Below, piece by piece: positions 47,162-49,133 of a stretch of DNA of 64,000 nucleotides. The stretch lies in NCBI GenBank assembly GCA_964016885.1, contig OZ024743.1, positions 273,606,001-273,670,000 on the forward strand, in the 5' to 3' direction. Numbering within the stretch: position 1 is the first letter of the stretch; the number at the start of each line of letters is the position of its first letter. Made by a program: the position numbers and the translations under genes. This stretch comes from Eledone cirrhosa. Taxonomy: Eukaryota. Under the pieces are notes generated by a model, which saw only the letters and a program-made list of their open reading frames with translations, was not told where the DNA came from and searched no databases.

Positions 47162-49133
47162 GGTATGTATGTATGTATACGTACATACATATATGTATAC
47201 AGACGTAGAGTAGTATGTATGTATATACATACATGCACACATATATATATGAACGTCTCGGTTTACCTAACATTTATTATAATGCTCGGTTTGTTTGTTT
47301 GTAAACAAACAAACAGCCCGAATTACGCTGTACAGTGTTTAGGCAACCACGTCACCCTTTTGTTCAACACTGACACAGGAACGATGTACTAGTTTCAAGC
47401 TTATTAGCTATCGTCAGCATCGTATACCTTCCCGCCAGATGGTTGAACGTCTGAAAGTATATATTTTGTTATGCATATTAACGACAGAGCAGCCTAATTT
47501 GCATATCGAGTGAGCTCAGTCGTTCCTGTATCAGTGTTGAACAAAAAGGTGACGTGGTTGCCTAAACACTGTACAGCGTAATTCGGGCTGTTTGTTTGTT
47601 TACAAACAAACAAGCCGAGCATTATAATAAATGTTCGGTAAACCGATACGTGCATATACATATGTGTGCATGTATGTATATATATACATACTACTGTACG
47701 TCTGTATACATATATGTATGTTCGTATACATACATACATACTTACATTTAAGTAAGTGCCGTACTAAGAGTGAGAAATGATATTTCGTTTCATTCTATTC
47801 CATGTATCGTTTTCGGTGAGCCCGGCCGACTGAACTCACTCGATATGCAAATAGGCTGCTCAGCCGTTAATATGCACAAGGGAAGTATATACTTTCAGAC
47901 GTTCAACCATCTGGCAGGAAGGTATACGATTTTGATGATAGCTAATAAGCTTGAAACTAGTACATCATTCCTGTATCAGTGTTGAACAAAAAGGTGAGGT
48001 GGTTGCCTAGACACTGTACGGTGTAATTCGGGCTGTTTGTTTGTTAACAAACAAACAAACCGAGCATTATAATAAATGTTCGGTAAACCGACACGTGCAT
48101 ATACATATGTGTGCATGTATGTGTATATATACATACTACTGTACGTCTGTATACATATATGTATGTTCGTATACATACATACATGCTTACATTTAAGTAA
48201 GTGCCGTACTAAGATGAGAAATGAAATTTCGTTTCATTCTATTCCATTTATCGTTTTCGGTGTGCCCGGCCGACTGAACTCACTCGATATGCAAATAGGC
48301 TGCTCAGCCATTAATATGCACAAGGGAAGTATATACTTTCAGACGTTCAACCATCTGGCAGGAGGGTATACGATTTTGATGATAGCTAATAAGCTTGAAA
48401 CTAGTACATCGTTCCTGTATCAGTGTTGAACAAAAAGGTGACGTGGTTGCCTAAACACTGTACAGCGTAATTCGGGCTGTTTGTTTGTTTACAAACAAAC
48501 AAGCCGAGCATTATAATAAATGTTCGGTAAACCGATACGTGCATATACATATGTGTGCATGTATGTATATATATACACACTACTGTACGTCTGTATACAT
48601 ATATGTATGTTCGTATACATACATACATACTTACATTTAAGTAAGTGCCGTACTAAGAGTGAGAAATGAAATTTCGTTTCATTCTATTCTATTTATCGTT
48701 TTCGGTGTGCCCGGCCGACTGAACTCACTCGATATGCAAATAGGCTGCTCAGCCGTTAATATGCACAAGGGAAGTATATACTTTCAGACGTTCAACCATC
48801 TGGCAGAAAGGTATACGATTTTGATGATAGCTAATAAGCTTGAAACTAGTACACCGATTCTGTATCAGTGTTGAACAAAAAGGTGACGTGGTTGCCTAAA
48901 CACTGTACAGCGTAATTCGGGCTGTTTGTTTGTTTACAAACAAACAAACCGAGCATTATAATAAATGTTCGGTAAAACGACACGTGCATATACATATGTA
49001 TGCATGTATGTATATACATACATACTACTGTACGTCTGTATACATATATGTTTGTTCGTATACATACATACATGCTTACATTTAGGTAAGTGCCGTACTA
49101 AGATGAGAAATGAAATTTCGTTTCATTCTATTC
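47162..49133 (+). mobile_element. Non-LTR retrozyme-like array: ~3.6 tandem 444-445-nt units with a 5' inverted arm
   Basis: Hammerhead cores at 47932, 48376 and 48821 (+); canonical copy at 47381-47423 (-); inversion junction at 47520; (TA)n on both sides. Confidence 0.9.
47381..47423 (-). ncRNA. Canonical minimal type I hammerhead
   Basis: ACGATG-CTGACGA-tAGCT aata AGCTt-GAAA-CTAG-TA-CATCGT. Confidence 0.9.

Follow-up and report, generated by a model that had tools for sequence, protein, structure and literature searches.

Positions 47162 to 49133 of a 64,000-nucleotide stretch of Eledone cirrhosa DNA (contig OZ024743.1 of assembly GCA_964016885.1; hereafter the window) raise the question of how a non-coding repeat that carries a hammerhead ribozyme came to lie, as a tandem array headed by an inverted copy, in a TA microsatellite. 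It had been predicted from the letters alone that the array is a retrozyme, that it is the cDNA of a self-cleaved multimeric RNA and that the ribozyme cut set the 5' end of its tandem arm. In the literature cited here, the mobility of animal retrozymes is still argued from co-occurrence and phylogeny (PMC7229834, PMC7761336 and preprint 10.64898/2026.07.22.740005). We argue that the informative feature of the locus is a pair of 3' end sites, and not its 5' junction.

Structure of the insertion

Comparison of the window with itself placed an inverted arm (47162-47522) head-to-head with a tandem arm (Table 1), which is the inversion typical of Penelope-like elements (PLEs) that had been proposed. 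Over the tandem arm (47520-49133), TRF reported a period of 445, 3.6 copies and 96% matches, in agreement with the expected 3.6 or so units of 445 nt. We number the unit from the first base 3' of the predicted hammerhead cut (+1). The first base of the tandem arm is +3, and the predicted start at 47520, 2 nt past the cut site, is thus what we see; since bases 47520-47522 can be assigned to either arm, the junction lies 2 to 5 nt past the cut. In an alternative drawing, as a bulged overlap of 5 of 6 bases, the junction has its first base exactly at the cut. The whole insertion is flanked by (TA)11 on the left and (CT)6(TA)n on the right, and the test for a target-site duplication meets microsatellite on both flanks. 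The segment that we call the tail (49076-49133) is present on the direct arm and missing from the inverted arm. Across the right-hand tract lies a PLE (49245-52080), adjoining as the original prediction had it.

Table 1. Retrozyme insertion, neighbouring element and related copies in the window. Signed numbers are unit positions relative to the predicted cut.
Feature	Position	Strand	Details
(TA)n tract, left flank	47139..47161	.	likely target, from the sequence
Inverted arm	47162..47522	-	5' end ~-136, 3' end ~+224 (short end)
Type I hammerhead, consensus	47376..47435	-	only one of the insertion; predicted cut between 47387 and 47386
Overlap common to both arms	47520..47522	.	3 nt at the inversion junction, +3..+5 past the predicted cut
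Tandem arm	47520..49133	+	3.6 units of 444-445 nt; 3' end +283 (long end)
Starts of tandem units T1, T2, T3, T4	47520, 47965, 48409, 48854
Candidate promoter	47845..47891	+	octamer ATGCAAAT at -118, TATA-like box at ~-77; every full unit has both
Off-consensus hammerhead, T1 to T2	47914..47973	+	U3 with G8; 2.1-1.1 mismatch; one further stem I mismatch
Off-consensus hammerhead, T2 to T3	48358..48417	+	U3 with G8; 2.1-1.1 mismatch
Off-consensus hammerhead, T3 to T4	48803..48862	+	U3 with G8; 3/6 proximal stem I pairs broken
Tail	49076..49133	+	holds two hairpins; lies between short and long 3' end site
(CT)6(TA)n tract	49134..49244	.	separates retrozyme from PLE
PLE, broken	49245..52080	+	RT then GIY-YIG, with stops and frameshifts
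PLE, inverted left arm	49245..49443		the 48-nt tail of the PLE is at the right end of the element only
Second insertion, same family	16146..16493	.	inverted arm (~-80 to +232) and 61-nt direct arm (+230 to +286), between TA tracts
Third insertion, same family	53068..53655	+	~1.3 units; 5' end ~+161, 3' end +289; CUGACGA core, GAAA replaced by UAAA
Sister family	24957..25642	+	466-nt period, ~1.5 units; hammerhead matches the consensus, core at 25311; inverted stub of 13 nt, end +228; direct end +301
Rearranged retrozyme fragment	52715..52825		octamer joined to ~+55

The unit (445 nt, repeated 3.6 times) has a GC content of 37-38%, is non-coding and lacks an LTR/PBS/PPT layout; the only ORFs of at least 120 aa that overlap the array are low-complexity frames entering the TA tract. 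A non-coding tandem unit with a hammerhead, a GC content below 50% and no LTR, PBS or PPT bears out its identification as a retrozyme. The predicted circles are 67-68% paired, in part through simple-repeat hairpins, with z scores of -4.6 and -5.8 (sister family: -9.8) and none of 60 shuffles as stable in each case. Two complete consecutive hammerheads, by which Li et al. recognise an 'active' copy, are not found in the array (0/3 tandem motifs complete). On these features of its sequence, we classify the focal copy as a decayed member of the non-LTR retrozymes.

The neighbouring PLE has a reverse transcriptase match (RVT_1, E = 1.6e-8), its alignment runs on into frame-shifted GIY-YIG segments, and GIY-YIG (PF01541) is also found in 8 of 36 homologues. 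One frame shows a degenerate C-x4-C-x2 linker; a motif search in three PLE homologues did not confirm it. The 48-nt tail of the PLE is confined to the direct end and recurs in a second copy at 25887, and the element shows the same asymmetry of short and long arm as the retrozyme. A comparison of the retrozyme with the adjacent PLE, 3' end included, gave no nucleotide match at E up to 0.5, and the shared tract therefore points to a shared target preference, not to a proven partnership. We rejected the array as an autonomous PLE itself: no RT or GIY-YIG ORF lies within 47162-49133, the broken one being only in the neighbour. By eye, the 3' repeat of the PLE contains a hammerhead-like hairpin followed by GAAA (51795-51835, and 26140-26180 on the minus strand), with an incomplete core in both copies.

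Hammerhead motifs

A type-I descriptor matched five sites in the window, compared with a mean of 0.02 over 100 shuffles, and a strict version matched two, at 47417 (minus) and 25311 (plus), compared with none in 100 shuffles. The consensus core is fully matched in the inverted arm and in a sister family, whose hammerhead combines the full consensus with a long stem I; in the copy at 16 kb, the core is present and stem II is weakened. The inverted-arm hammerhead has the consensus core CUGACGA and all six proximal stem I pairs. The distal part of its stem I is bulged, its stem II has U.U at the base, and its stem III is 1 bp long with a palindromic loop. It fits the canonical description of animal type I hammerheads (PMC4209133), and it resembles axolotl Amex1 in its 1-bp helix III and palindromic tetraloop and axolotl Amex2 in the U.U at the helix II base; both axolotl types cut well only as dimers (PMC7229834).

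In the tandem arm we found three hammerhead motifs, all UUGAUGA with a U.C mismatch at 2.1-1.1. Extra stem I mismatches occur in two of them, and C3 or the 2.1-1.1 pair in none. A hammerhead in every unit had been expected; there are three motifs in 3.6 units, all off-consensus, and only that of the inverted arm is intact. U3 with G8 would be a slow combination for a hammerhead. U3 paired with A8 is a natural covariant (PMC4209133), and rare core variants slow hammerhead cleavage (PMC7151607).

Across seven sequences, 5 of 12 stem pairs are altered on both sides, a covariation signal that comes mostly from the single sister sequence. Rfam at gathering score reported no hammerhead in the whole window, and with E up to 10 over 43-55 kb there was none among the best 150 of 151 matches; the matches listed for 43-55 kb are microRNA models on TA/TACA repeats. 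Isolated hammerheads fold no better than shuffles (z -1.45 to +0.37). Unconstrained co-folding of dimers gained only 2-3 kcal/mol, without a double-hammerhead helix III, so that co-folding says nothing on dimer activity.

Judging from these motifs, we hypothesize that the family in general would self-cleave as dimers and could form circles, and that the focal tandem arm probably cannot cleave itself into circles on its own. For a cleavage assay, the sister hammerhead appears to be the most promising one of the window. We stress that eight of nine dimers tested elsewhere did not cleave (preprint 10.64898/2026.07.22.740005).

Divergence of the arms

Past the cut, the inverted arm differs from the tandem units by 4.6-7.3%, compared with 0.5-4.6% among the units themselves; before the cut, the values are 8.3-9.8% and 0.8-2.3%. 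Thus the inverted arm and T1 differ at 21 of 351 positions, and T1 and T3 at 2 of 352 (P=3e-5), and even the most distant pairs are unequal (29/351 for inverted against tandem, 13/352 among tandem units; P=0.011). At five substitution sites, all tandem units have one state and the inverted arm has that of the 16-kb copy, and three of these five are in the 5' strand and core of the hammerhead. The inverted arm retains an intact core and other states of distant copies that are lost in the tandem units. A tree that splits inverted from tandem arms has modest support (84/87), and each arm is ~3-4% from the common ancestor. Given a divergence of 4.6-9.8% over the whole arm and the ancestral states, the fold-back of one cDNA is unlikely unless the array was later homogenised, and we conclude from the sequences that the inverted arm probably derives from another RNA than the tandem arm. 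In twin priming of the L1 type, both arms come from one RNA and the inverted arm ends where the direct arm begins. We rejected such a single-template 5' inversion, given the divergence of the arms and given that the inverted arm ends at +224 and the direct arm starts at +3.

The tandem units are themselves unequal. T1 and T3 differ at 6 of 445 positions, T2 and T4 at 15 of 280 (P=0.0025). The latter pair has three derived states in common (P 0.001-0.02 if the units had decayed independently). Copying of one monomer circle does not fit units as unequal as these; a mixed linear multimer, transcribed from an older array, would fit the tandem arm, and the defective hammerheads would explain how such a multimer survived uncut.

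The 5' and 3' ends of the copies

Besides the focal insertion, the window contains two insertions of the same family, at 16 and 53 kb, and one of the sister family at 25 kb, which is identical to the main family in 284 of 479 alignment columns (59%; score 227, compared with at most 52.5 in 200 shuffles). These three family insertions and one sister insertion, all within the window, provide seven mappable arms; the fragment at 52715-52825, on account of its internal rearrangement, does not enter these counts. Arm ends were read by eye from alignments and are ambiguous by a few nt at the TA flanks. An inverted 5'-truncated copy lies beside a partial tandem in three of the four insertions, and all three inverted junctions have overlaps of 1-3 nt.

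The 5' ends are scattered: +3..+5 (direct arm) and ~-136 (inverted arm) in the focal insertion, +230 and ~-80 at 16 kb, ~+161 at 53 kb, and +94 and +216 in the sister family. Only one of the seven is near the cut (P ~0.09), or one of the four direct arms (P ~0.05), the chance expectation for a 5' junction at +1..+6 being 1.3%. All four arms with an intact or near-intact core read straight across the cut site. Mapped across copies, the 5' junctions are therefore not significantly concentrated at the cut, and the one junction at the cut, taken by itself, is an isolated case close to the chance level. The original prediction of a cDNA of self-cleaved multimeric RNA survives in part: the unequal units speak for a multimeric template, and the one end in seven and the four arms that cross the cut speak against self-cleavage having set the 5' end. 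We consider the junction 2-5 nt past the cut to be probably incidental; run-off of the reverse transcriptase at the cut is possible but unsupported.

The 3' ends are ordered. All three direct arms of the main family stop at +283, +286 or +289 (chance ~0.001 for three within 8 nt), and both inverted arms stop at +224 or +232 (chance ~0.05). With the sister family included, short ends are found on all three inverted arms and long ends on all four direct arms. The long ends sit just past a hairpin common to both families, and the sister ends there too (+301). The tail between the short and the long site is 55-73 nt. A 23-nt motif of the tail had no match in a genome-contig collection and none in plasmids, as expected for an animal repeat. 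The end asymmetry is not universal in the window, since an unrelated repeat with inverted arms (11061-12491) has symmetric ends.

PLE insertions are known for an inverted 5'-truncated copy, for a tail that is often one-ended and for microsatellite targeting (PMC8557442). In vitro, a PLE protein has been shown to nick AT-rich DNA on both strands and to extend both, the tail corresponds to the spacing of two internal RNA start sites, and hammerhead cleavage is dispensable for insertion (PMC11167929). Published tails are 30-40 bp long (PMC8557442, PMC11167929). By analogy, we interpret the two 3' end sites of the retrozyme as the tail signature of a PLE.

A candidate promoter

The octamer ATGCAAAT lies 40-41 nt before a TATA-like box in all six copies that cover the region; sites matching the one at 47845-47891 are at 47497, 48289, 48734, 53223 and 25211. 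Among the longest exact blocks common to both families are one of 12 nt at the octamer, one of 11 nt in the hairpin of the tail and one of 9 nt in the core of the hammerhead, next to further TA/CA-rich blocks of 8-12 nt. Transcription starts ~30 nt downstream of a TATA box. In both families, this spacing would place the start at the 5' border of stem I. The octamer and TATA-like box are thus possibly a promoter aimed at the 5' edge of the ribozyme, a reading based on conserved motifs. A run of four T follows the long end in the main family; in the sister family a run of five T is at +215, which makes a simple pol III unit less likely. The 3' repeat of the PLE also holds a reverse-oriented octamer, at 51999.

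Retrozymes have been described as seemingly without promoters, with no promoter or partner-revealing motif apparent (PMC7761336), and PLEs use the promoter of an upstream copy (PMC6765202). For the hammerhead repeats of newt and schistosome, promoters of the snRNA type and of pol III are cited (PMC2220036).

Origin of the insertion

From these observations, we consider it probable, with some reservation, that a non-LTR retrozyme was put into the TA tract by the enzyme of a PLE through two primings, the tandem arm having been copied from an uncut mixed multimer. The PLE nuclease would nick both strands of the tract. A first reverse transcription, from the long site (+283) on a multimeric transcript, would copy 3.6 units and pass three hammerheads that were likely uncut because of their defective cores; a second would begin at the short site (+224) of a different RNA, one whose hammerhead was intact, and copy 358 nt. 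Likely, one priming would use one strand of the DNA and the second the opposite strand, each probably with its own RNA molecule as template, and the two cDNA ends could then anneal through the 3-nt overlap to give the head-to-head junction. Points against this account are the small number of insertions, a tail longer than that of published PLEs, the lack of similarity to the neighbouring PLE, the modest support of the tree and a divergence of ~3-4% per arm, which also fits an old simultaneous insertion with local homogenisation.

Much of this would be unchanged if, as was central to the original prediction, the template of the tandem arm had been a multimer with a hammerhead-cut 5' end, perhaps cut by an intact dimer partner, whose cDNA then joined the other arm. 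We give this a lesser, though real, chance. The focal junction at +3..+5 suits it, the two bases ahead of the overlap match +1 and +2 if one is bulged, which would let a cDNA that stops exactly at the cut pair with 5 of 6 bases, and a multimer would be protected by internal hammerheads that are defective, two of them with extra changes in the cleaved strand. Four of the 15 differences between T2 and T4 also fall within +1..+11 (P=0.002 if each arose independently, 0.09 if a single event made three of them). Against it stand the counts of 5' ends (1/7, P 0.09; 1/4 direct arms, P 0.05), which moreover were spotted post hoc, and the four arms with intact or near-intact cores that cross the cut; T1 is almost the same as T3, a unit preceded by a defective hammerhead, and in PMC11167929 no reads start or stop at the PLE hammerhead cut. 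The differences between T2 and T4 at 47965-47970 and 48854-48859, just past the cut, could reflect the survival of uncleavable multimers.

Two further accounts bear on the tandem arm. An old insertion of ~1.6 units and an inverted arm could have come from one template, with unequal crossover later expanding and homogenising the tandem arm and spreading its hammerhead mutations. An amplification in place has been put forward before (preprint 10.64898/2026.07.22.740005), the arms lie at much the same distance (~3-4%) from a common ancestor, and the changes common to all tandem units crowd into the stretch that would once have been single (~7 in 133 nt before the cut, 2 in 219 after); still, we hold such growth in place to be unlikely, since it requires several ordered events, and gene conversion as well for the two post-cut sites common to T1 and T4, and since the three copies of the once-single region differ by 0.8-2.3%, as after a recent expansion, yet T2 and T4 by 5%. 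In the published model (PMC7229834, PMC7761336), a single circular RNA, monomer or dimer, is reverse-transcribed by rolling circle; the units would then have become unequal through mutation or gene conversion. The units do fold as well-paired circles (z -4.6 and -5.8, 0/60 shuffles as stable), and the three derived states common to T2 and T4 give a partial ABAB pattern. A monomer, however, predicts unrelated private changes (P 0.001-0.02), and a dimer predicts equal distances for T1/T3 and T2/T4, which are 6/445 and 15/280 (P=0.0025). As a defective core should, in addition, seldom release a circle, we regard this origin as quite improbable for the focal array; a circular template would fit the other copies, in which an intact hammerhead is read through. 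That the inversion or the array is an assembly artefact, from a fold-back read or a mis-joined repeat, seems to us very improbable indeed: the flanks are microsatellite and such structures do trouble assemblies (PMC8557442), but the arms are 4.6-9.8% apart with consistent diagnostic states, and the same architecture occurs again at 16.1 kb, at 25.0 kb and in the PLE.

Insertion by a PLE enzyme with two primings, the account that we prefer, can be extended to a more specific scheme, which we put forward as doubtful. It would have two fixed start sites, ~225-230 and 285-300 nt past the hammerhead, conserved across families that are 59% alike and used one per DNA strand on separate RNAs; an octamer-plus-TATA promoter in every unit, which only multimer copies would inherit; and, in the focal insertion, run-off at a ribozyme-cut end.

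Should the two-site tail and the unequal arms prove general across the genome, they would amount to evidence at the level of insertions for a PLE enzyme, internal initiation and the use of both strands. As a compact non-coding substrate, the 445-nt unit could also serve to test how PLE inversions form, a question that PMC8557442 lists as unresolved.

Other repeats in the window

The family of 11061-12491, also found at 33471-33789 and 52858-53004, has long inverted arms between TA tracts with equal outer ends, and a CTGATGA-like motif was seen by eye near 11650 (minus) in the 11061-12491 repeat. At 38743-39140, a further family has an inverted pair of hammerhead-like motifs (cores 38985 plus and 38891 minus) with U at position 17 and a junction well upstream of the cut. 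Short related repeats cluster between TA tracts at 15270-16130, beside the 16-kb retrozyme copy, with hammerhead-like cores, by eye, near 15420 (plus) and 16055 (minus). The open frames at 45474-46034 (-) and 40726-41385 (-) have no Pfam match; we take them to resemble the restriction-like endonuclease domains of non-LTR retrotransposons. Weak tRNA matches in dispersed repeats, at 8580-8651 (-) and 6576-6633 (+), are probably the heads of tRNA-derived SINEs.

Comparison with known systems

A PLE origin of retrozymes has already been argued from phylogeny and co-occurrence (preprint 10.64898/2026.07.22.740005). In the available text of PMC7229834 and of this preprint, an inverted arm, a two-site tail and the pair of promoter-like motifs are not described, and the words tail, junction and promoter are absent from the main text of the preprint; in the wider literature, covered in part, we found no description of tail or inversion signatures on retrozymes. 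Element class and architecture are nonetheless each already known, and the focal insertion is a useful example, not a new system.

Like the metazoan non-LTR retrozymes of these two sources, the focal element has a non-coding unit within the range of 150-450 bp, one type I hammerhead per unit, a well-paired predicted circle and a PLE in the same genome; unlike them, it has tandem cores that are off-consensus, and its unit is slightly longer than the reported circles of 170-400 nt. With newt satellite 2 and the schistosome repeats it shares the tandem hammerheads, whereas own promoters are reported there (PMC2220036) and here only inferred from conserved motifs. The insertions of EN+ PLEs (PMC8557442, PMC11167929) have the same partial tandem with an inverted 5'-truncated copy, the same one-ended tail, an AT-rich or microsatellite target and a hammerhead upstream of two 3' end sites; the retrozyme differs from them in having no ORF, a tail of 55-73 nt instead of 30-40 and no similarity to the PLE next door. 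The non-autonomous elements of Chlamys, such as MRC1, are likewise non-coding passengers of PLEs with multicopy head-to-tail insertions, but they share 3' sequence with their autonomous partner and belong to a clade without canonical hammerheads (PMC8557442). By analogy with these systems, the retrozyme appears to work like a PLE passenger.
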